From Nitrososphaerota archaeon (GTDB lineage Archaea; Thermoproteota; Nitrososphaeria; Nitrososphaerales; Nitrosopumilaceae): a stretch of DNA of 19,912 nt. Below, piece after piece: positions 1,394-11,527 of this stretch. Positions within the stretch are counted from its first letter, which is position 1; each line of letters opens with the position of its first letter. The notes under the pieces are model-generated. The model was not told where the DNA came from and searched no databases. It saw only the letters and a program-made list of their open reading frames with translations. Both the position numbers and the translations under genes were made by a program. The stretch is taken from NCBI GenBank assembly GCA_022573895.1, contig JACZTB010000032.1, forward strand, positions 1 through 19,912, in the 5' to 3' direction.

Positions 1394-1564
1394 TCAATTA
1401 GATTTTGTTTTTTTCTGGCATAAATCGCATAATGTTTCATATATCATACTGTTTATTGGTTTGAATTCACTACCACAATTTGTACATGTATTAAGCAAGA
1501 TTACTCCTGTCTTGAACCCTATATCTTTTCTAACTCTTGGTTTGCTATTCTGTTCTTTTACCAA
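1394..1564 (-). CDS. small zinc-ribbon protein (about 56 aa, start uncertain, TTG at 1562-1564)
   Basis: Hand translation: ..NTCTNCGSEFKPINSMIYETLCDLCQKKTKSN*, giving two CxxC pairs. It overlaps the upstream gene end by about 20 nt. Below the ORF-track cutoff. Confidence 0.3.
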   Translation of the reverse strand: MVKEQNSKPRVRKDIGFKTGVILLNTCTNCGSEFKPINSMIYETLCDLCQKKTKSN

Positions 1565-1793
1565 AATATTTCTCCATTACCCCTGCAACATCATCTGCAA
1601 ACATGCCATGCTCTCCTTCATTCCATATTGTCCGTAATTCCTCAATCATTTTTTGATTCTTGAGGATTTGTTGCTTTAGACCTTCAAGATTATCTTCAGT
1701 ATGTGCCAATCTGGGAATCATGTAATAGTTATAATTCATTCCAACCAAAACAAAATCATCTTCAGATAGTTTAATTTTAGAAATTTCTGTCAT
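1545..1793 (-). CDS. hypothetical protein (82 aa), no recognisable motif
   Basis: ORF in the track. Its ATG overlaps the stop of the upstream gene (1790-1793), so it is part of a coupled minus-strand operon. Confidence 0.6.
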   Translation of the reverse strand: MTEISKIKLSEDDFVLVGMNYNYYMIPRLAHTEDNLEGLKQQILKNQKMIEELRTIWNEGEHGMFADDVAGVMEKYFGKRTE

Positions 1794-1975
1794 GGCTCAA
1801 TATGTGATACAACCCAGTCCTTTATTGCCATATCTGTTCGGTGTTCCTGACATCGAATATGAGGACATGGAATCAATCTACTGCAATTATCCTCTTCACA
1901 TTTTCTGTAAGTTCCTGGAATGTTAGTACCATTAGGGGATATTCGCAGATTGTCCTTATTTTTTTCTGATAACAT
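1790..1975 (-). CDS. small Cys/His-rich (zinc-binding-like) protein, 61 aa
   Basis: ORF in the track. Contains CEEDNCSRLIPCPHIRCQEH. Tightly packed against its neighbours. Confidence 0.55.
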   Translation of the reverse strand: MLSEKNKDNLRISPNGTNIPGTYRKCEEDNCSRLIPCPHIRCQEHRTDMAIKDWVVSHIEP

Positions 1976-2560: not shown

Positions 2561-2600
2561 ATCTTGTAATGAATTATGTCAATGAATCGCGATTATTTTG
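2561..2600 (+). repeat. internal att-like site: ATCTTGTAATGAATTATG plus the same arm motif at the same 15-nt spacing
   Basis: TTGTAATGAATTATG matches the right-end TTGTAATGAATAATG at 14 of 15 positions. TCGCGATTATTTTG (2587-2600) is identical to 1227-1240 with the same spacing from the core. Confidence 0.35.
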
Positions 2601-2669
2601 TAAAGGTTGGAGTCGAAAGCAACCCATAATCGATTGTCTGAGTGTTGGTATTGTGGTAAAAATTAGATT

Positions 2670-3434
2670 CTATGTATAAGGGCAGTATTTTTTATGTTCA
2701 TCAAAAACCGTTCGTATTAACAGAGTCAGATTCTTTTTCAATAACTCTAAATCAGATTTGTGGATTTTTGAAGAGGGTAAATGCGCAATATGATCTTGAT
2801 CGTTACGCATGACATTATAACTTTTAAAGAAACTAATCGATGCAGTTCGAATTGAAAAATTTACTGCCTTTGCCTCTTTAAATAAAATTGATTGCATTTC
2901 AGAAAATTTCTTTTCCCATTTGAGGTGTCTAACAGTACCCTCTAAAATTCCATGATCCATCAAAAATTTAGAACAAACTGTTTCCATAAAATTAAGAATT
3001 ACCAAAGAATCAATCCAATCTTGATTGATGTTACTAATTCCATGAGTTTGCCCGATTTCAATCACTTTATTTGTTATATTGCTCAATTTCATATATTGCG
3101 GAAGAGTGTTGGATTTGTTAGAAGATTTAGAAGATGAACCAGAAGAGGATGCATGACTAGTTATGGAAGAAAATTTCAATTTTTTTAATTCTGGGAGTTT
3201 TTGATAAATTGTAGTATTTCCAATTGTTGTAACTACTGTAAGAAGACCCATGTCTTCAAGATGCCCAAGTTTGTATGAAACATTACTATGTTGTTTTCCA
3301 AGAGTCTGTGCAATTTGAGTGCTATTTTTCTTACCGTTAACTTGTTCAAAAACATTCCAAGCAATTGAATTTTTTTTACCCAATATTGTCCGTGCATTAT
3401 CAAGTGTAGATGACATGTTTGCAAGTTTTGACAT
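2670..3434 (-). CDS. ArsR/MarR-like wHTH, Ser-rich linker, then alpha-helical C-terminal domain with an RNxxxH (HEPN-like) motif
   Basis: 254-aa ORF. The N-terminus reads STQIAQTLGKQHSNVSYKLGHLEDMGLL (wHTH recognition-helix pattern), followed by the linker SHASSSGSSSKSSNKSN. RNDQDH lies at aa 210-215 (nt 2790-2807), about 45 aa from the C-terminus. Confidence 0.75.
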   Translation of the reverse strand: MSKLANMSSTLDNARTILGKKNSIAWNVFEQVNGKKNSTQIAQTLGKQHSNVSYKLGHLEDMGLLTVVTTIGNTTIYQKLPELKKLKFSSITSHASSSGSSSKSSNKSNTLPQYMKLSNITNKVIEIGQTHGISNINQDWIDSLVILNFMETVCSKFLMDHGILEGTVRHLKWEKKFSEMQSILFKEAKAVNFSIRTASISFFKSYNVMRNDQDHIAHLPSSKIHKSDLELLKKNLTLLIRTVFDEHKKYCPYT

Positions 3435-3440
3435 TTATTT

Positions 3441-3764
3441 TTACTCCGGTACCTCATTAACTTCATAAAGTCTCAGAGGTTTAATCTCAATCCCCTTTCC
3501 CAGAGAATCTTCTACTAAAATAATTCCATTTTTCTTCCATTTCAAAATTGTTTGACCTAAACTTTGAGATGCAACCCCAGATTTTTTTGCTATTTCAGTA
3601 AGGGTAAATTTACCATTACACAAATTATATGCCTTAAGAAGTTCTTTTGGTTTCTTGCTATTTTTTTGTATTATTGCAATTAACTTTTCTTCTGGAAATA
3701 CCAATCTCCCCAATAGCGAAATAATGAATTTGTTCTGTTTGATTAATTCTTTAATCTCACTCAT
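3441..3764 (-). CDS. winged-helix DNA-binding protein (107 aa from ATG 3764; the track ORF extends to 3797)
   Basis: Contains FTLTEIAKKSGVASQSLGQTILKWKKNGIILVE. The start MSEIKEL overlaps the stop of the upstream gene by 8 nt. Confidence 0.7.
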   Translation of the reverse strand: MSEIKELIKQNKFIISLLGRLVFPEEKLIAIIQKNSKKPKELLKAYNLCNGKFTLTEIAKKSGVASQSLGQTILKWKKNGIILVEDSLGKGIEIKPLRLYEVNEVPE

Positions 3765-3966
3765 TTTTCTTTCTCCTATATTGTGACAATGTAACATTTA
3801 CGGTATTCTGACTTTTTCCTAAAATATTAGCAACATCCTTGTTAGCAATTCCAAGTTTACTAAGCAATACTATTTGTTCTCCAATTTCTTTACCTTTAAT
3901 TTGATTCATAGCTAGAAGTTTTATTATTACATCTAATTTTTCTATAATTAATTTGGATTCAGTCAT
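3757..3966 (-). CDS. small helix + HTH protein, paralog P1 (69 aa)
   Basis: KLDVIIKLLA ... LSKLGIANKDVANILGKSQNTVNVTLSQYRRK. The pattern is shared with P2-P5. ATGA overlap with P2. Confidence 0.7.
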   Translation of the reverse strand: MTESKLIIEKLDVIIKLLAMNQIKGKEIGEQIVLLSKLGIANKDVANILGKSQNTVNVTLSQYRRKKNE

Positions 3967-4190
3967 TTGTTACTCCTTCGTTTTTGTTTCACAAGTTCAC
4001 TTGACACATAGCCTCTAGACTTACCAAATAAATTAGCAATGACATTATCTGAAAAACCTAATCGATTTAACATGAAAAATTGCTCACCTGTATTCATTTC
4101 AGAGATTTCATTAGATCTAAGTGTCAAATATATTAAAAGTTCAAGATTTTTATTGATTTTTTCCAATACGATGGTATTAATTTCAGGCAT
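3963..4190 (-). CDS. small helix + HTH protein, paralog P2 (75 aa)
   Basis: KNLELLIYLTL ... LNRLGFSDNVIANLFGKSRGYVSSELVKQKRR. First gene of the minus-strand operon. Confidence 0.7.
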   Translation of the reverse strand: MPEINTIVLEKINKNLELLIYLTLRSNEISEMNTGEQFFMLNRLGFSDNVIANLFGKSRGYVSSELVKQKRRSNK

Positions 4191-4347
4191 GATTCTATTA
4201 ATATATAGAAAATTCTTGTATTTATGACTTTTTTTTTTAATATTTTTTATTGTTTTTTATGCCTGTTATTTTAATTATATTAATTAAGGAAGTAAATAAT
4301 ACAATAATCGACATAAAACTTAATTAGTAATATATCAGCAATACATT
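4191..4347. promoter_or_regulatory. divergent promoter/operator region between the two HTH operons
   Basis: 157-bp, very AT-rich spacer between divergent ATGs. Contains TTTTATGCCTGT (4255-4266) and the variant TTTATGACT (4221-4229). Confidence 0.45.
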
Positions 4348-4548
4348 ATGAGTAATGAAGAAAGTAAATCAATTGAAAAATTGTTATCTGAAATTAACAA
4401 AAAGTTAGATATTCTTATAGAAATTCAGATCCTTGACAAATCAGAAGATGATCAATTAAAAATGTTGAAAAGATTAGGATATTCTTCAAAAGATGCCAGT
4501 GAATTTACTGGAATAAGTTATTCTTCAATTAGACATAGAAAAGGGTGA
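4348..4548 (+). CDS. small helix + HTH protein, paralog P3 (66 aa)
   Basis: KKLDILIEIQIL ... LKRLGYSSKDASEFTGISYSSIRHRKG. Confidence 0.7.
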   Translation: MSNEESKSIEKLLSEINKKLDILIEIQILDKSEDDQLKMLKRLGYSSKDASEFTGISYSSIRHRKG

Positions 4549-4790
4549 AAAGATTAGTAAAAAAAACCAATGAAAAATCCAAAACAGAACTAGATCTTCT
4601 TAATGAAATTAGTTTAAAATTAGATAAGGTGATTGGGATTTTGGCATGTTCATCAATTAAAGAACCAAGAAACAAAATTCCGTTATTAAAAAATTTGGGA
4701 TTTACAATTGAAGATACTGCAAACATTACAGAACTAACAATAGATGTAGTGAAAAAAGAACGTTCTAAGTTAAAGGATTCTAAAAAATGA
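4545..4790 (+). CDS. small helix + HTH protein, paralog P4 (81 aa)
   Basis: LKLDKVIGILA ... LKNLGFTIEDTANITELTIDVVKKERSK. ATGA overlaps on both sides. Confidence 0.7.
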   Translation: MKRLVKKTNEKSKTELDLLNEISLKLDKVIGILACSSIKEPRNKIPLLKNLGFTIEDTANITELTIDVVKKERSKLKDSKK

Positions 4791-5005
4791 GTGATGACAT
4801 TTTAAAATCAATTAATCAAAAGTTGGATTCAATTCTAAAGATTTTAGCATTGCAATATATTGAAAACAAACCGAAAACAGAACAAGCAAATATACTATTG
4901 AATTTAGGAATGACCTCAATAGAAGTTGGAAAAATACTTGGAAAATCAGATGTGACAATTAGAAGACAAAAACAACAAGCAAGAAATAAAAAATCTAAAA
5001 ATTAA
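4787..5005 (+). CDS. small helix + HTH protein, paralog P5 (72 aa)
   Basis: QKLDSILKILALQ ... LLNLGMTSIEVGKILGKSDVTIRRQKQQARNK. Confidence 0.7.
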   Translation: MSDDILKSINQKLDSILKILALQYIENKPKTEQANILLNLGMTSIEVGKILGKSDVTIRRQKQQARNKKSKN

Positions 5006-5012
5006 TTTCAAA

Positions 5013-5086
5013 ATTATTTATGCCTAGAAAAATTATTTATGCCTATTCTTTATGCCTAGTATTACGCATAAAGATCTTTATGCGTA
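5013..5086 (+). promoter_or_regulatory. iteron-like cluster: 3 direct TTTATGCCTA repeats plus a 24-bp perfect palindrome of a variant half-site
   Basis: ATTATTTATGCCTA occurs at 5013-5026 and 5032-5045, and TTTATGCCTA at 5049-5058. TACGCATAAAGA|TCTTTATGCGTA at 5063-5086 is a perfect palindrome. Confidence 0.6.
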
Positions 5087-5170
5087 GAGTTGAATCTTAA
5101 TAGATTAGAATCTAAATTACATTTAAGATAATTTACCAAACAGATTACAGATAATCTCTAAAAAGGGACT

Positions 5171-5236
5171 CCCCCCTTTTCACGAACAAAAAGTCATGTT
5201 AATCCACATTATAATGTCAAGTTGATTTGTTTTGAT
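5171..5236 (+). repeat. repeat A, copy 2
   Basis: See copy 1. It again lies in a convergent gap, between the P5 end (5005) and the end of the GYNK-repeat gene (5287). Confidence 0.7.
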
Positions 5237-5286
5237 CTCATCCATTTTATTATCTTTGTATCTTTTTTAGGTCACAATTTTTATGA

Positions 5287-6042
5287 TTAATCATTTTTTA
5301 CTTCGATTTTATTTTTATTAAATTTGTTGTATCCATCTTTGTTGTACCCCTCTTTGTTGTAACCTAGGTGATCATATCCAAGTCTATCATACTCCTCTTT
5401 GTTATACCCAATACTATCATATCCATCTAAGTCATACCCATAACTGTCATATCCATTTCTATCATACCCATTACAATCATATCCATTTCTATCATACCCA
5501 TTTTTGTTATACCCGTCTTTGTTGTACCCATTTTTGTTGTACCCATCTAGGTCATACCCATTTTTGTTGTAACCCTTTTTGTTGTACCCATCTAGGTCAT
5601 ACCCATTTTTGTTGTAACCCTTTTTGTTGTACCCATTTTTGTTGTAACCCTTTTTGTTGTACCCGTCTTTATCAAAATTTATTCTTGTATCAATATGAAT
5701 TCCATCAAGATAAAAACCATGATTATCATACCCATTTTTGTTGTAACCCTTTTTGTTGTACCCATTTTTGTTGTACCCATCTTTGTTGTAACCCTTTTTG
5801 TTATACCCATTTTTGTTGTAACCCTTTTTGTTATACCCATTTTTGTTATACTCCTCTTTATTGTACCCGTCTTCATCATACCCATTTTTGTTGTAACCCT
5901 TTTTGTTGTACCCATCTAAGTCATACCCATTTTTGTTGTAACCCTTTTTGTTGTAACCCTTTTTGTTATACCCATCTTTGTCATACCCATCTTTGTCGTA
6001 TCCAAACTCGTCAAATTTTTTAAATTTATCAAATAACCCCAT
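5287..6042 (-). CDS. orphan G-Y-[ND]-K-x pentapeptide tandem-repeat protein (251 aa)
   Basis: ORF in the track. More than 40 consecutive GYNKK/GYNKN/GYDLD units are split by one non-repeat insert (NHGFYLDGIHIDTRINFDKD). No signal peptide or TM segment. The underlying 15/30-bp DNA periodicity runs from 5310 to 6000. Confidence 0.6.
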   Translation of the reverse strand: MGLFDKFKKFDEFGYDKDGYDKDGYNKKGYNKKGYNKNGYDLDGYNKKGYNKNGYDEDGYNKEEYNKNGYNKKGYNKNGYNKKGYNKDGYNKNGYNKKGYNKNGYDNHGFYLDGIHIDTRINFDKDGYNKKGYNKNGYNKKGYNKNGYDLDGYNKKGYNKNGYDLDGYNKNGYNKDGYNKNGYDRNGYDCNGYDRNGYDSYGYDLDGYDSIGYNKEEYDRLGYDHLGYNKEGYNKDGYNKFNKNKIEVKND

Positions 6043-6095
6043 AAAGATATGAAATTACTAGTGGATTATTACTATTTTGTAAATTTTGGACACAT

Positions 6096-6132
6096 ATAAT
6101 CATCATTTAACTCAAATATCTCTGGAAAAAAT
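6096..6132 (+). repeat. repeat B, copy 2 (upstream flank of the GYNK-repeat gene)
   Basis: 22-bp exact match plus a degenerate extension to 2524-2560. It lies about 55-90 nt upstream of the minus-strand ATG at 6042. Confidence 0.75.
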
Positions 6133-6199
6133 TCGGGGTTTAACAAAGTTGAATTGTTCATTTTCAGTCATTGGTGTTTACTAATTTACCATGTCAAGT

Positions 6200-7393
6200 C
6201 TATAGAATGATTTCAGAATCATCAACATCCTTAACGACTATAAAATCAGAATCATCATCAAATTTTACATGTTTTTCAATGTCAGGGTATTTACTCAGAG
6301 ATGACGAATCTAGTTTAGAATTTTTTCCTTCTTTACGTATTAATTCTGCTAGATCAAATTTCATTCTCATAAACTCGTTTTCTAAATTCCGTAGTTGTTT
6401 GGATTGATTTTCAAGTAAGGGGTTGTTTTTCTCTAATGCTTCTTTTTCAACCAATAGTCTCTCAGAACTATCTACTGTAAGATCTACAATCCCATTTTTG
6501 AACTCTTCAAACATTTGCTCAATTGTGGGTTGGAGATATGTTCCATCTAGTCCTCTCTTATGCCCCATCATTTTCTCAATAATATTGTCATTTACAGCCT
6601 TGTTTAACTTCAAAATAGTGTCAAATCTCTTCCTAAATCCATGTGCCAATTGTTCAGCATATCGACCATTCTTTTTCTGCCCTCTAACATTTGAGTTTTT
6701 TACTGCCCTAATCAAAATACCTTGAATTGCTCTTTTGGAAATTGGTTTGGGTTTTGAAATTCCCAATTGATAACGTTCTCTAAACAAAGGACTTTCATCA
6801 TTTAGAACTTCATGGTTTCTTTTTCTTTGTTCTAAATAATCATCTAATGCTTTGGAAGCTTCGGGTGTAAGAAATGTATAATATTCTTCAATTGAATCCT
6901 CATAAACTGTAATCATCTTACAGTCTAATGGCATATCTCTAATGTGTTTTAATTTCAATTCAGGTAATGAACCAACTCTAACACCAGATGATGCAAGAAA
7001 GTGAATGATTGCTTTGTTTCTAATTTGTGGAGAAACATCTAACATTTTTTTGACATCTTCCGTAGAATATGCAGAAGACCCTGAACGCTTAACAGGAGCA
7101 GGATAAAGTCTTTTGATTTTTCTCCAATTAAGATCAATGTCATTTGCTTCTAAGAAAGTTTTGATTGCATTAGCTTCTGATGGTAATGTGTTTGGACTGA
7201 TTTTCTTTTTGCGATGAATAACATAAGTTTCAACTAGTTTTTGTAGTTCTTTCTTTTCAATTTTTACAATACTATCAAAGTCTTGTATATTATGAAACTT
7301 CATGAACTTCATAACAAGATATGTGTACATCTTTACAGATTCTTGTGAACGTAATGATTCTTGAAATATCATTAGACTGTATTGTTCTACCAC
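6200..7393 (-). CDS. int: tyrosine recombinase / phage-type integrase with a long C-terminal coiled-coil/acidic tail
   Basis: 397 aa. Catalytic-box patterns: ASSGVRVGS (Arg), LAHGFRKRF (H-x-x-R), MGHKRG..GTYLQ (His..Tyr). GTG start at 7393 or ATG 21 nt downstream. Confidence 0.85.
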   Translation of the reverse strand: MVEQYSLMIFQESLRSQESVKMYTYLVMKFMKFHNIQDFDSIVKIEKKELQKLVETYVIHRKKKISPNTLPSEANAIKTFLEANDIDLNWRKIKRLYPAPVKRSGSSAYSTEDVKKMLDVSPQIRNKAIIHFLASSGVRVGSLPELKLKHIRDMPLDCKMITVYEDSIEEYYTFLTPEASKALDDYLEQRKRNHEVLNDESPLFRERYQLGISKPKPISKRAIQGILIRAVKNSNVRGQKKNGRYAEQLAHGFRKRFDTILKLNKAVNDNIIEKMMGHKRGLDGTYLQPTIEQMFEEFKNGIVDLTVDSSERLLVEKEALEKNNPLLENQSKQLRNLENEFMRMKFDLAELIRKEGKNSKLDSSSLSKYPDIEKHVKFDDDSDFIVVKDVDDSEIIL

Positions 7394-7415
7394 AATCTAG
7401 AATATAGTATCTACT

Positions 7416-7448
7416 AAATAATCGCGTTTATGGTCAATTATTGTAATG
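7416..7448 (+). repeat. attR-like site: inverted arm motif AAATAATCGCG followed by core GGTCAATTATTGTAATG
   Basis: 7416-7426 is the reverse complement of CGCGATTATTT. The core at 7432-7448 overlaps the last codons and stop (7438-7440) of the minus-strand TRASH-like gene. Confidence 0.4.
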
Positions 7449-7626
7449 AATAATGAACGTCACAAAAAAGGACTATTCCATGAGGCAAGGTTTTGGCAGT
7501 AATAGTATGACCATCTTCTATTCCTTTACCACAAACATAGCATTCCACTTTAGATACTGAAGATAGGACATTGTGTGATCTTAGAATCTGCATATCCTGA
7601 ATAATTGCTTGATTTACCCCCTGCAT
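7438..7626 (-). CDS. small TRASH/YHS-like zinc-ribbon protein (62 aa)
   Basis: CYVCGKGI-x(18)-FCDVH, resembling the CxxCG....FCSxxC TRASH/YHS pattern with His in the last position. Divergent from trpE. Confidence 0.5.
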   Translation of the reverse strand: MQGVNQAIIQDMQILRSHNVLSSVSKVECYVCGKGIEDGHTITAKTLPHGIVLFCDVHYSLQ

Positions 7627-7743
7627 AGTAATTCTACTACGATCAAATATGATATAAAGGTACCGTACTTTACCGTAATCATTTTATGCCTGTAAACCCA
7701 ATCATTTTAGACTAAAATGGTACGATCATAACCTACTGTTCAA

Positions 7744-7777: not shown

Positions 7778-9127
7778 GTGAACACATTTGGAAACTCTCA
7801 TGCAAAAGTAATACCCCTAGATTTATCTGAAAACCAATTTCAAATTTATAATAAAATTTCAAGAAACTATTCACATTCATTTCTCTTTGAATCATTAACA
7901 GGTCCTGAAGTACTAGCTGAAACATCAGTTATGGGATTTGACCCAAAGATAATTCTCAAAGGATATTCAGATAAAGTAGAAATTCTTCGAGGTGGAGATA
8001 CAGAAACCATACAAACTATAGACCCATTTGGAGAACTAAAGAAACTCTTAGGAAGATCAGATGATCAAAGTTATAGATATCTTGGTGGAGCAGTAGGGAT
8101 TGTTAACTATGATGCAATTAGATTGGTTGAAGATATTCCAGACAATCATAACTCACCGCAACCATTAATGGAGTTTGGAATTTATGATGATGGTATTCTA
8201 TATGATAATCTACACAAGAAACTATTCTATTTTTATCATGATGAGAATAGATTTGATAAACTAAAGATGAATGGTGATACATTTGGTGACTTCCATTCCA
8301 GCGAAGTAACACCAAATATGGATAAAGAAAAATTCTCAGATATTGTAAACAAGGCAAAAAAATTAATCTATGATGGAGATATCTTCCAAGTTGTTTTATC
8401 TAGGAAATTTGCATTTGAGAATAATGGAGATAATCTAACTTTATACAAAACATTACGAAAATTAAATCCATCACCATACATGTATCATTTAAAACAAGGT
8501 TCCAAAACAATCATTGGTGCATCTCCTGAAATGTTAGTACGTATAACTAATGATAGGGTAGAGACTTTTCCAATTGCTGGAACCAGAAAGATTACAGATA
8601 ATGAAGAAAAGAACAAACAGTTAGCTGATGAACTACTCCATGACGAAAAGGAACTAGCAGAACATACAATGTTGGTTGATTTGGGACGAAACGATATCGG
8701 CAGAGTATGCAAATATGGAACAGTCCATCCAGAATCTCTAATGCAGATAAAGCGATTTAGTCATGTTCAGCATATTGTTACGCACCTAGTAGGTAAATTA
8801 GCGCCTGAAAACGACATGTTTGATGCGTTCAAGGCAGTATTTCCAGCAGGAACAGTCTCAGGGGCTCCCAAAGTTCGGGCTATGGAGATCATTGATGAAT
8901 TAGAGACTGAAGCTAGAGGACCATATGCAGGGGCTGTTGGATATTTCTCATTTAATGGATGCTGTGACTTTGCAATAGCAATCAGAAGTATCTTCATTGA
9001 TGGGAAGAGAGGATTTGTTCAATCAGGAGCTGGAATAGTTGCTGATTCTGTTTCAGAACATGAATTCAAGGAGATAGAATTCAAGGCAGGTGCAATGCTT
9101 CAAGCATTAAAGGAGGCAACTAAATGA
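7778..9127 (+). CDS. trpE: anthranilate synthase component I
   Basis: 449 aa. Motifs LVDLGRNDIGRV, GAPKVRAMEII, GPYAGAVGYFSFNG. GTG start. Confidence 0.95.
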   Translation: MNTFGNSHAKVIPLDLSENQFQIYNKISRNYSHSFLFESLTGPEVLAETSVMGFDPKIILKGYSDKVEILRGGDTETIQTIDPFGELKKLLGRSDDQSYRYLGGAVGIVNYDAIRLVEDIPDNHNSPQPLMEFGIYDDGILYDNLHKKLFYFYHDENRFDKLKMNGDTFGDFHSSEVTPNMDKEKFSDIVNKAKKLIYDGDIFQVVLSRKFAFENNGDNLTLYKTLRKLNPSPYMYHLKQGSKTIIGASPEMLVRITNDRVETFPIAGTRKITDNEEKNKQLADELLHDEKELAEHTMLVDLGRNDIGRVCKYGTVHPESLMQIKRFSHVQHIVTHLVGKLAPENDMFDAFKAVFPAGTVSGAPKVRAMEIIDELETEARGPYAGAVGYFSFNGCCDFAIAIRSIFIDGKRGFVQSGAGIVADSVSEHEFKEIEFKAGAMLQALKEATK

Positions 9128-9714
9128 AATTTCTAATCATTGACAACTATGATTCATTTGTGTATAACATTGCACAATACCTAGGAGAATTAGGAGTTGA
9201 GTCAGATGTTATTAGAAATGATAAAATCACATTAGATGAGATTAAACAGAAAAACTATGATGCCATAATAATTTCACCAGGTCCAGGAACTCCAGAAGAG
9301 AAGAAATACTTTGGAATATGTTCAAATGTGATCAAAGACATGGGACCAACTACACCAATTCTTGGAGTCTGTCTTGGACATCAAGGAATTATTCATGCAT
9401 TTGGCGGTAAAGTTACAAATGCAGGATGTGTAAGACATGGAAAGACTAGTCCAGTTAATCATAATAATTCAGAGCTATTCAAGGGAGTAAGTAATCCATT
9501 TAGAGCAACAAGATATCACAGTCTGGTTGGAGATAAAACAATAATTCCAGATGTACTAGAAGTAACTGCTACTGCAGCTGATGATGGAGAGATAATGGCA
9601 ATAAGACATAAAGAATATCTAATTGAGGGAGTACAATTTCATCCAGAATCAATAATGACTGAAGAAGGCAAAAAAATTCTAGCAAATTTCATAAAACAGG
9701 TAGAAGAAAAATGA
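9124..9714 (+). CDS. trpG: anthranilate synthase component II (glutamine amidotransferase)
   Basis: 196 aa. GVCLGHQ catalytic Cys motif and QFHPES. ATGA overlap with trpE. Confidence 0.95.
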   Translation: MKFLIIDNYDSFVYNIAQYLGELGVESDVIRNDKITLDEIKQKNYDAIIISPGPGTPEEKKYFGICSNVIKDMGPTTPILGVCLGHQGIIHAFGGKVTNAGCVRHGKTSPVNHNNSELFKGVSNPFRATRYHSLVGDKTIIPDVLEVTATAADDGEIMAIRHKEYLIEGVQFHPESIMTEEGKKILANFIKQVEEK

Positions 9715-10751
9715 TTTCAAATTTAATTCAAAAATTAGAAGAGAAGACAGACCTTACCTATGATGAGATGAATAATGTCATGACAGACATTCTCTCAGGA
9801 AATACAAACATCCAACAGAATGCAGATTTTCTATCCAGTCTGGCAGACAAAGGAGAGACAGATGATGAACTACTTGGGATGCTGGATAAAATGCAAGAGC
9901 TATCTCTAAAAATTGAGCCTAAAAACGCTGGAACCATTATTGATATGTGCGGGACTGGAGGTGACAAGCTTCAAACCTTCAATGTCTCAACTACGGCTTC
10001 ATTTGTAGTAGCTGCTGCTGGAGGAGTAGTTGCAAAACATGGAAATCGTTCCACTTCAGGAGTGTCTGGAAGTGCAGATATTTTTGAGTATTTTGGATAT
10101 GATCTAAATCAAGAACCATCAAAAATTGTACAAATTCTAGAAAAGCATAAAATTTGTTTCATGTTTGCACAAAAGTTTCACCCAACAATGAAGCATGTTA
10201 GTCCAGCAAGAAAACAATTAGGAAAAAGGACAGCTTTTAATCTTCTAGGACCATTATCAAATCCTGCTGGAGTAAAAAATCAACTCGTCGGTGTATTCTC
10301 TAATGAATATCTTGACAGATTACCTATAATTCTAAAAAGAAAAGGTGCAGAAAATATTATGACAGTACGTTCTGATGATGGAATGGATGAATTTTCTACA
10401 AGTGCAACTAACCGTGTATGTATTTTGAAAAATGGCAAAGTGTTGATGAATGCGATTGATCCTGAAGTGGTAGGATTACACAAATCATCACTCAAAGACA
10501 TTCAGATTGAAACAAGAGAAGATGCGATAAAGTCATTTGTTAGTGTTCTGAATAATACTGCAAATCAAGCAATGATTGAAACCACAGCATTAAATGCAGC
10601 AGGAGGATTAATTGTTGCAAACATTGCAAATAATTTTGAAGAAGGAGTAGAATTAGCTATGAACACAATCAAAGATGGAAAAGCATTCAAGACTTTGGAA
10701 AACTTTGTTGCAGACACTGGAGACATTTCAAAATTAAAGGAGATTGTGTAA
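9711..10751 (+). CDS. trpD: anthranilate phosphoribosyltransferase
   Basis: 346 aa. Motifs CGTGGDK and KHGNRS. ATGA overlap with trpG. Confidence 0.93.
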   Translation: MISNLIQKLEEKTDLTYDEMNNVMTDILSGNTNIQQNADFLSSLADKGETDDELLGMLDKMQELSLKIEPKNAGTIIDMCGTGGDKLQTFNVSTTASFVVAAAGGVVAKHGNRSTSGVSGSADIFEYFGYDLNQEPSKIVQILEKHKICFMFAQKFHPTMKHVSPARKQLGKRTAFNLLGPLSNPAGVKNQLVGVFSNEYLDRLPIILKRKGAENIMTVRSDDGMDEFSTSATNRVCILKNGKVLMNAIDPEVVGLHKSSLKDIQIETREDAIKSFVSVLNNTANQAMIETTALNAAGGLIVANIANNFEEGVELAMNTIKDGKAFKTLENFVADTGDISKLKEIV

Positions 10752-11527
10752 TGGCCGAAAATATTTTAAAAAGATTGGTAACCAATTCTCAAACAGCAAT
10801 TGATGATGGAACATATGACATAGATGCAAATCTGCAAAAATCAAGCAAAGACCTTATTCAAATTATCAAGAACAACCCTCACCCAACACTACTTACTGAG
10901 ATAAAATTTGCGTCTCCATCCCTGGGAAAGATTAGAACCCTCACAGACCCGACAAGCATAGCAAGGCAGATGGTTGCTGGAGGCTCAAAAGCACTATCAA
11001 TCCTTACTCAGCCCAATCTATTTCATGGCTCACCAGAATATTTCATGAAGGTCAGAGAATCAGTAGATATTCCATTGTTGATGAAAGATATTATGATAGA
11101 GAATATTCAAATAGACGCTGCAGAAAAAATGGGTGCAGATTACATACTATTGATTCAGTCATTGTTTGATCAGGGATTTCTTAAAGAGATTGATGAATTC
11201 ATTGAGTATGCTCACAAAAAAGAACTAAAAATACTCCTTGAAGTTCATACAAAACAAGAATTTGAAAATGCGTTAAAGACTGAAGCTGATCTTATTGGAG
11301 TTAACAACAGAAATTTGGATACATTAGAAATTGATCTAAAAACTACCGAGACAGTTCTAGAGGGATATAAAAAATCAAGAACAATCTTATCAGAGAGTGG
11401 GATTAAAACTCCTGAAGACATTCAATATCTAAAAAAATCTGGAGCTGATGCATTCTTGGTTGGTTCAAGCATTATGAAAAGCGATAATATTGAAGAACAA
11501 GTGAGGAAATTGGTGAAAGCATATTGA
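10751..11527 (+). CDS. trpC: indole-3-glycerol-phosphate synthase
   Basis: 258 aa. Motifs [10 protein letters not shown] and GVNNRNL. TAATG overlap with trpD. Confidence 0.9.

Follow-up and report, generated by a model that had tools for sequence, protein, structure and literature searches.

Why should a small integrated element of an archaeon carry a whole series of diverged copies of one DNA-binding protein of about 70 residues, set head to head in two operons? This question is raised by a 19,912-nucleotide stretch (hereafter the window) from a Nitrososphaerota archaeon of the Nitrosopumilaceae (assembly GCA_022573895.1, contig JACZTB010000032.1), in which five genes, P1–P5, all annotated as 'hypothetical protein', form two divergent, translationally coupled operons either side of a 157-bp spacer (Table 1). 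The minus-strand operon runs on into two further genes, W118 and W254. The best explanation of the observations below is that P1–P5, together with W118, serve as a conserved control module in a cryptic element of 4.9 kb that bears its own integrase. As to what is controlled, we tentatively favor, at a little under even confidence, a reading in which the array is a multi-helix-turn-helix (HTH) regulatory or neutralizing module for a toxin- or defense-type effector, its layout resembling that of type II or tripartite toxin-antitoxin (TA) or abortive-infection (Abi) operons.

An old set of paralogous genes

An initial annotation of this DNA, made from the sequence alone, had proposed five paralogous open reading frames (ORFs) around an AT-rich spacer, and all five were found exactly where it had placed them, as was the spacer, whose GC content is indeed low. 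It had read all three gene overlaps as ATGA, which holds for 3963–3966 and 4787–4790, whereas the overlap at 4545–4548 is GTGA because the start codon of P4 is GTG. The extension of the minus-strand operon into two winged HTH (wHTH) proteins was likewise correct, W118 being winged and W254 carrying an ArsR-like wHTH.

The five proteins are 25–42% identical in pairwise comparisons. Single-sequence searches with phmmer connect P1 with P5 (1.7e-6), P1 with P2 (1e-5) and P3 with P4 (5e-3, all calculated for a nominal database of 1e6), while hhalign comparison of orthogroup profiles joins 8 of the 10 possible pairs at 84–98% probability (E 1e-5 to 2.5e-13); the weaker pairs, P2–P4 (22%) and P2–P5 (52%), are both joined via P1 and P3. 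The profile similarity that common descent would predict is thus present, and the proposed paralogy is upheld by both methods. Only the count needs to be revised: W118 aligned to every orthogroup profile (72–97%, hhalign) and has an N-terminal 'KxxDxIISxL' helix, and is therefore a sixth, winged member. It may start at 3797, overlapping P1 by 41 nt, or at M12 (position 3764), overlapping it by 8 nt.

Among 5.8 billion proteins, a profile search returned 74 relatives, all of 57–96 aa and, where the source is named, all from Nitrosopumilaceae-type archaea. They split into five groups (the P1 orthogroup has 20 members), and nearly all share 53–97% identity with a single window paralog but only about 30% with the remaining ones, the exceptions being P0071 and P0074, which are just 39–41% identical to their best paralog. 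Across all five window genes, dN/dS against orthologs lies at 0.08–0.39 (0.09–0.23 for P1 and 0.08–0.19 for P3). Inside orthogroups, no segment is better conserved than the recognition helix (identity 0.63–0.99), whereas among paralogs none is less conserved (0.17), a pattern which indicates that each paralog group carries its own predicted, fixed DNA specificity. On these sequence comparisons, P1–P5 and W118 are old, sub-functionalized paralogs and real genes; and given the conservation of the orthogroups, the low dN/dS and the behavior of the recognition helix, the set is not diversifying between elements.

Fold and family affinities

An AlphaFold2 (AF2) model of P1, built with 21 orthologs, has a predicted local distance difference test (pLDDT) score of 92 and helices at residues 3–23, 28–37, 42–49 and 53–68, in agreement with the helix-plus-HTH architecture given in the initial annotation. 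P1 thus models as a four-helix, stand-alone HTH of the sigma-70-region-4/LuxR type. The residue pattern earlier proposed for this HTH proved approximate, since P1 has 'IA' in place of S/T and P4 is without the G.S motif.

Pfam matches of P1–P5 (HTH_23, GerE and Sigma70_r4_2) are all sub-threshold. For Sigma70_r4_2 (PF08281), P1, P3 and P5 score 15.2, 14.0 and 14.2 bits against a gathering threshold of 25.7, and the same scan gave P2 and P4 no match to this model at all; for GerE (PF00196), P1 scores 15.6 bits, the cut-off being 23.5. A Foldseek search of the P1 model against the PDB and BFVD found nothing at E<0.001, only generic HTH matches, among which the best superpositions are with LuxR/GerE-type domains such as those of EsrB and TraR (root-mean-square deviation, rmsd, 0.9 Å over 40 residues; range for this type 0.9–1.5 Å over 40 residues), at E-values above 0.2. 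Sigma-70 region 4 and resolvase HTH domains are in the same list and superpose poorly (rmsd ~8–18 Å).

The family is large. With HMMER run exhaustively against 1.84 billion cluster representatives, 2,187 clusters pass E<=1e-3 and 162 pass E<=1e-10; nearly all have 65–100 aa and are matched from end to end. Among 72 family members, weak matches are seen to Sigma70_r4_2 (36/72 at E<=0.01, best 3e-7), TIGR02937 (28/72), HTH_23 (21/72) and Tfx (5/72), and in two members each to Terminase_5, TerS_N and HTH_7. Model scans found no dedicated Pfam, NCBIfam or PADLOC model for these ~2,200 clusters, and scans of P1–P5 against PHROG, NCBIfam and PADLOC gave only generic, sub-threshold HTH matches; named sources, Candidatus Woesearchaeota included, label members just 'hypothetical protein'. 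Relatives were absent from IMG/VR viral contigs, and tblastn of P1 and the family consensus against phage and plasmid collections gave no match. A scan of GTDB genomes found a single locus, in a Chloroflexia metagenome-assembled genome (MAG), because the search patterns were strict. Sequence matches of the family profile in the PDB, headed by designed helical-repeat proteins, were set aside as spurious low-complexity hits.

Arrays that lead into swappable effector genes

What the small proteins might act upon is suggested by their neighbors. The neighborhood census covered 25 non-redundant loci and took as the effector position a same-strand ORF of at least 150 aa within 700 nt after a run of family members. 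At least two members occur in 24 of the 25 loci and at least two are directly adjacent in 23; in 16 the run is followed by an ORF in the effector position, with a 17th (L019, 309 aa) recognized by hand. Arrays comprise 2–7 members, the usual terminal protein has 235–310 aa and an effector domain, and the distribution takes in Thaumarchaeota, Woesearchaeota and one Chloroflexia MAG.

In thaumarchaeal relatives, the divergent module is found again in unchanged gene order. In L001, one arm carries P4' and P3 and the opposite arm P2, P1, proteins of 90 and 57 aa and a TIR protein; in L002, P4' and P3' face P2, P1 and proteins of 82, 47, 92 and 298 aa; in L021, P5 and P4' face a 73-aa protein, P1 and proteins of 94 and 250 aa, an integrase lying further out beyond the P5 arm; and in L019 (N. 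zosterae), proteins of 309 and 58 aa, P1' and P2' stand opposite proteins of 73 and 94 aa, P3, P4' and a 104-aa protein, with an integrase further along the same side. A ParA-like ATPase (AAA_31, 5.5e-33; L001 7221–8216, minus strand) closes the P3–P4' operon of L001, a Nitrosopumilus relative, and is the sole hint of partitioning; no ParA-type ATPase was found in the window and, among the relatives, L001 is the only locus with one.

The thaumarchaeal terminal proteins align over their N-termini, modeled as a wHTH in the window protein W254, and differ in their C-terminal domains. A helical domain with an RNxxDH..AH motif is shared by the window and L021, while the terminal protein of L001 has a TIR domain (TIR_2 5e-18; PADLOC PDC-S66 2.5e-43). 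Proteins of ~300 aa in L002 (5279–6175), L019 (7840–8769), L023 (8142–9011) and L018 (5910–6818), whose N-termini also align with the W254 wHTH, share a conserved C-terminal domain with the motif KMGxxGDQIxRLFxSP...FFVxY and take the effector position in several arrays; these four have no Pfam or PADLOC match. Effector homologs match the PADLOC models PDC-M34B, PDC-S66 and ThsB, unlike the HTH proteins.

Among the other loci, several have Swt1-like HEPN proteins (Pfam cut-off 27.5 bits). They follow five members in a row in L010 (32.8 bits; PADLOC PDC-M34B 6e-26) and two in L005 of the Chloroflexia MAG (27.8 bits, above the cut-off), where the stretch 8836–11205 of CAVXCH010000011.1 encodes a 249-aa RNAFQH-motif protein, a 76-aa Zn-ribbon, members of 78 and 73 aa and the 277-aa HEPN protein, in this order, with more ORFs on the downstream strand beyond it. 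Members also precede such a protein at scores below the cut-off in L013 (23.9 bits) and L014 (23.0 bits). In Woesearchaeota (L031–L034), six coupled members (71, 57, 63, 55, 66 and 64 aa) lead into a 258-aa protein made of a wHTH and a Swt1-like HEPN, whose HEPN score in L031 (23.3 bits, E 8e-5) is again below the Pfam cut-off; these arrays (L031 5613–7526; Candidatus Woesearchaeota, GCA_018303605.1) lie beside integrase, GmrSD (GmrSD_N), HicAB, ParE and PIN genes. With six members they are among the longest, comparable only to L026, which has six or seven members over both strands. In L024, unlike the other loci, the HEPN gene (29.0 bits) is upstream of the members. Elsewhere, members lie upstream of a SIR2 gene and a large downstream ORF (L015) or of an HNH gene (L012). 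L035 has a P2-like (64 bits) and a P1-like (69 bits) gene, two more members and then a 235-aa protein, so that the P2–P1 order is kept in a distant locus. At the lower extreme stands L025, a minimal pair of one member and a W254 ortholog, which is chromosomal, between purD and ileS, with the integrase absent.

The putative effector of the window

In the window, the genes P2, P1, W118 and W254 overlap or lie 6 nt apart, as fits TA and Abi operons, in which DNA-binding genes directly precede the effector gene. W254 comprises an ArsR-like wHTH (residues 7–79), a disordered linker (90–116) and a helical C-terminal domain, for which AF2 gives helices at 142–160, 173–190, 197–217 and 226–249. This domain contains the invariant RNxxDH..AH motif, with R210-N-D-Q-D-H215 unchanged in 29 homologs; taken with the model, it shows the Rx4-6H motif within an all-helical bundle by which HEPN domains are recognized. 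No kinship of the W254 C-terminus with Swt1-type HEPN domains emerged from hhalign (probability <1% against the Swt1-like HEPN set), and the putative 'HEPN-like' label is drawn solely from the motif and the modeled helical content. The suggestion of the initial annotation that the small proteins are partners of an adjacent HEPN-like protein gains real comparative support from the 16 loci in which a run leads into an ORF, from the HEPN, TIR, SIR2 and RNxxxH domains of those proteins that could be annotated and from the L025 pair. The wHTH of W254 also weakly resembles lambda-O-type initiators (phrog_678, 1.2e-4).

Candidate DNA sites

If the array proteins bind DNA near their own genes, two places present themselves. 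The spacer is ~81% conserved in L001 and L002, with short aligned stretches only in L006. Some 28 nt before the P3 ATG it carries a conserved block, TAAAACTTAATTA, a candidate TATA box/B recognition element. The spacer also contains, at a conserved position, the 19-nt box TTTTTTATGCCTGTTATTT, a candidate operator that is 84% identical to a box at 5033–5051.

Allowing at most one mismatch, the window contains 20 copies of the motif TTTATGCCT, where 7.3 would be expected, and five of them are grouped at 5017–5085, past the last gene of the plus-strand operon. The inverted pair among them forms a perfect 24-nt palindrome, TACGCATAAAGATCTTTATGCGTA (5063–5086), which could equally be a dimer operator or the terminator hairpin of the P3–P5 operon. 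The cluster region aligns in L023, L021, L006 and L019; the scored five-box cluster is kept in L019 only, where it again follows the final gene of the plus-strand operon. L001 and L002, both of which are without P5, have no such cluster. The cluster is not an integrase arm site because it lies ~2.4 kb from either attachment (att) site. A copy of TTTATGCCT at 7683 was ruled out as part of the element, as it sits in chromosomal DNA partly conserved in L023. The array proteins probably act via TTTATGCCT boxes and control the two promoters.

The integrated element

The array lies in an integrated element of 4.9 kb (~2564–7440; E2), bounded by 15-nt att repeats at the point where synteny breaks, DNA synteny with L023 beginning at ~7437 of the window. 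Its gene order is W254, W118, P1 and P2 on one side and P3, P4 and P5 on the other, followed by the repeat cluster, a GY-repeat protein and a tyrosine integrase. The initial annotation had described a 6-kb element; this is actually the 4.9-kb element plus a 1.4-kb tandem remnant without an integrase. A weaker third att core at 1204–1211 with a similar arm, and a 37-nt repeat (2524–2560 and 6096–6132, 92% identical) whose copies lie directly 3' of the E2 integrase and at the corresponding end of E1, together indicate that E1 (1204–2563) is an integrase-less tandem remnant.

Thaumarchaeal cryptic integrated elements (CIEs) insert into gene 3' ends and often have no recognizable replication gene, according to a survey of them (Krupovic et al. 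2019, PMC6563490). E2 fits this category: it has a tyrosine integrase and flanking att repeats, and virion, conjugation and casposase genes were not found in Pfam and PHROG scans. The same scans agree with the earlier statement that replication, structural and conjugation genes are lacking. The target is the 3' end of a conserved chromosomal Zn-ribbon ORF; a tRNA was ruled out as target, the window being without a tRNA gene. In the related genome L023, this site is occupied by another, decayed island in which 108 nt of an integrase remain (L023 11195–11302; target ORF L023 12866–13057), and the site therefore appears to be an integration hotspot.

Table 1. Coordinates of the array, its candidate DNA sites and the surrounding element in the window
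Feature	Position	Strand	Remarks
attL core TTGTAATGAATTATG	2564–2578	+	14/15 positions match attR
W254	2670–3434	-	last gene of minus operon; putative effector
W118	3441–3797	-	sixth family member, with C-terminal wing
P1	3757–3966	-	69 aa
P2	3963–4190	-	75 aa; first gene of minus operon
Divergent spacer	4191–4347		157 bp, 15.9% GC
19-nt box TTTTTTATGCCTGTTATTT	4253–4271	+	in spacer; candidate operator
P3	4348–4548	+	66 aa; first gene of plus operon
P4	4545–4790	+	81 aa; GTG start overlapping P3 stop
P5	4787–5005	+	72 aa; ATGA overlap with P4
Repeat cluster	5013–5087		past last plus-operon gene; three direct TTTATGCCT boxes and an inverted pair
GY/NK pentapeptide-repeat protein, 251 aa	5287–6042	-	between repeat cluster and integrase
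Tyrosine integrase, 397 aa	6200–7393	-	PF00589 47 bits vs cut-off 27.1; phrog_1
Zn-ribbon ORF, 62 aa	7438–7626	-	chromosomal; upstream of trpE; 3' end is the integration target
attR core TTGTAATGAATAATG	7441–7455	+	last five codons of the Zn-ribbon ORF

Some further features of the two elements may be recorded. E1 (1.36 kb) and E2 share the att core TTGTAATG and similar arms, and E1 holds only small Cys-rich ORFs (1394–1975, minus strand), as if its integrase had been lost. Each tandem element has one copy of a 90-nt direct repeat (1264–1353 and 5142–5231; 78% identity, 87% over a 45-nt core), for which Rfam gave no match and RNA folding was not significant (z from 0 to -2). An Rfam match in E1 to the C/D-box RNA snoR77Y (1688–1768, minus strand), inside an 82-aa ORF, was discarded as probably due to chance, since it scores 28.6 bits (E 0.046) where the gathering score is 52. 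The 251-aa protein of E2 consists almost wholly of GYNK(K/N) and GYD(L/R/E)D repeats with a 15-nt period in the DNA, has homologs elsewhere in the genome in L001 (4840–5466) and L002 (11203–12033), and may be element cargo or a captured host gene.

A possible mechanism and the points that weigh on it

These observations can be joined in a model in which the minus-strand operon, P2 to P1 to W118 to W254, would be a 'multi-HTH plus effector' cassette. Translational coupling would ensure that the small proteins are made together; each would bind DNA through its own conserved recognition helix, with the 19-nt TTTATGCCT box of the spacer and the five-box cluster past P5 as candidate sites, and they would repress both divergent promoters. 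Singly or as heteromers, they might also hold the terminal wHTH-effector silent or neutralized, such that a disturbed balance, upon virus infection or loss of the element, would release the effector and arrest the cell, following the logic of abortive infection or addiction. P3–P4–P5 would then act as the counterpart of this arm within one switch. The data show the reality and paralogy of the genes, the conservation of the orthogroups, of gene order and of the repeat boxes, the HTH fold as an AF2 prediction and the link to effector genes; binding to the boxes, repression, heteromer formation, toxicity of the effector and a role in defense are inferred.

Several points count against linking the array to an effector in this way. 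The loci were collected via the family itself and form a small and non-independent sample, and the adjacency of effectors could partly be due to shared residence on islands. Small HTH genes are borne by many mobile genetic elements (MGEs) merely as housekeeping regulators. In the window, the P3–P5 operon is without an effector of its own. Family members gave no model match against PADLOC-DB v2, only hits at chance-level E>0.002. The C-terminal domain of W254 has no HEPN profile match and no Pfam hit even at E<=10, nor did a PDB sequence search match it; Foldseek with the full-length model matched the N-terminal wHTH only and is thus silent on this domain.

Competing explanations

The point about housekeeping regulators leads to a rival account, which we consider unlikely yet deserving of real weight: the two operons might be a mutually repressing, CI/Cro-like switch that sets integration and excision, copy number or dormancy of the element, with the effector as unrelated cargo. 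A conserved AT-rich spacer common to the divergent operons would suit such a switch, as would the synteny with an integrase that the window shares with L019 and L021. L002 probably belongs here too, since a 381-aa ORF with no Pfam match on record takes the integrase position in it. Many CIEs, moreover, bear only wHTH or HTH genes beside the integrase (PMC6563490). It sits poorly with the pairs and arrays of family members and effectors that have no integrase in the examined sequence (L025, L014 and L024), and with an effector position that is kept while its domain is swapped, a pattern typical of functional coupling. A second alternative, of which the initial annotation had raised the centromere-binding form, is a centromere- or origin-binding complex: attachment of at least one of the paralogs to the iteron-like TTTATGCCT cluster would serve partition or replication of the element once excised. 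The three direct boxes with their palindromic pair, the five-box geometry of L019 and the alignment of the region in L021, L023 and L006 would agree with this, as would the ParA-like ATPase at the end of the L001 P3–P4' operon and the weak lambda-O-type likeness of the W254 wHTH. Yet ParA, Rep, helicase and primase are absent from the window and most relatives, Rep being found in none; L001, the sole locus with ParA, is without the cluster, as is L002; and a TIR domain stands at the W254 position in L001. We thus regard this second alternative as rather improbable.

Two further proposals receive very little credence. The initial annotation had considered a diversified immunity or exclusion set against related elements, and the paralogs of one element do have different recognition helices; but the same five orthogroups persist at 53–97% identity across different elements under a dN/dS of 0.08–0.39, with the recognition helix as the most conserved part of each, and the element-to-element diversification that such a set requires is not seen in the conservation data, which contradict it and make it highly improbable. 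Slightly lower still we place small-terminase-like or recombination-directionality (excisionase) functions: the weak Terminase_5, TerS_N and HTH_7 matches, in two of 72 members each, and the occurrence of small basic proteins on an integrase-bearing element speak for them, while large terminase and capsid genes were not found by Pfam and PHROG scans, tblastn found no match in the phage collection, arrays occur without an integrase in the fetched flanks (L024 and L025), and six paralogs far exceed the need of such roles. With partner genes absent, both the terminase and the excisionase reading were rejected. Going beyond a TA- or Abi-like control module, one might regard the tandem HTH array and its wHTH-fused effector as a distinct, hitherto undescribed multi-component immune or addiction system of Thaumarchaeota, DPANN and some bacteria, in which the paralogs, each of fixed DNA specificity, would not be ordinary repressors but would assemble on DNA into a hetero-oligomer that senses or scaffolds and thereby licenses an exchangeable effector (HEPN RNase, TIR/SIR2 NADase or nuclease); this bolder version appears doubtful, and somewhat more so than the housekeeping switch.

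Relation to known systems

With sigma-70 region 4, the C-terminal domain of extracytoplasmic function (ECF) sigma factors (PF08281) and archaeal Tfx-type HTH proteins, the array proteins have in common a helical domain with the HTH in its last two helices. They differ from sigma-70 in being single-domain proteins of ~70 aa (66–81 aa here), mainly archaeal in the sample, with their own N-terminal 'KLDxIIxLL' helix and a basic tail; they are without region 2, which argues that they have no sigma function, and archaea are without sigma factors altogether. GerE/LuxR-type proteins (PF00196) are likewise ~70-aa single-domain regulators and give the best structural superposition; in the array proteins, the recognition helix comes last and no dimerization helix follows. 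We know of no tandem paralog arrays of GerE or LuxR proteins.

At the level of the operon, type II and tripartite TA and Abi systems likewise place small DNA-binding genes upstream of, and coupled to, a HEPN, TIR or SIR2 effector on MGEs and defense islands. The PADLOC candidates PDC-M34 and PDC-S66 are further examples of this type. Abi2/Swt1-family proteins exemplify the known HEPN effectors of TA and Abi systems, and a sigma-type HTH fused to a DUF4145 HEPN is on record (PMC3710099). Here, however, there are 2–7 paralogous HTH genes and not one antitoxin or regulator, a second, divergent operon of paralogs has no effector, and the effector itself bears a wHTH.

At the level of the element, the thaumarchaeal CIEs likewise have a tyrosine integrase, short att repeats, protein-gene 3' end as target and cargo annotated as wHTH; they are stated in the survey to have no signature genes apart from the integrase, and in the passages searched no mention of an HTH-array module or of a link to effectors was found (PMC6563490). 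The array module described here is a candidate for such a CIE signature, as an ordered set of paralogous HTH genes tied to swappable effectors of the HEPN, TIR and SIR2 types. If the link is functional, it would represent a new control architecture for abortive-infection and addiction effectors across archaea and bacteria, and its concrete, testable parts would be the six small proteins, the box of 19 nt in the spacer, the five-box cluster and a single putative effector. Ammonia-oxidizing archaea are abundant worldwide, and to our knowledge their mobile elements and immune systems are nearly uncharacterized.

The general kind is already known: on mobile islands, HEPN or TIR effector genes are preceded by genes for small HTH regulators or antitoxins. 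What is new is a protein family without a model or a name, its ordered arrays of 2–7 paralogs with a divergent second arm, and the spread of these from Thaumarchaeota to Woesearchaeota and a Chloroflexia MAG.

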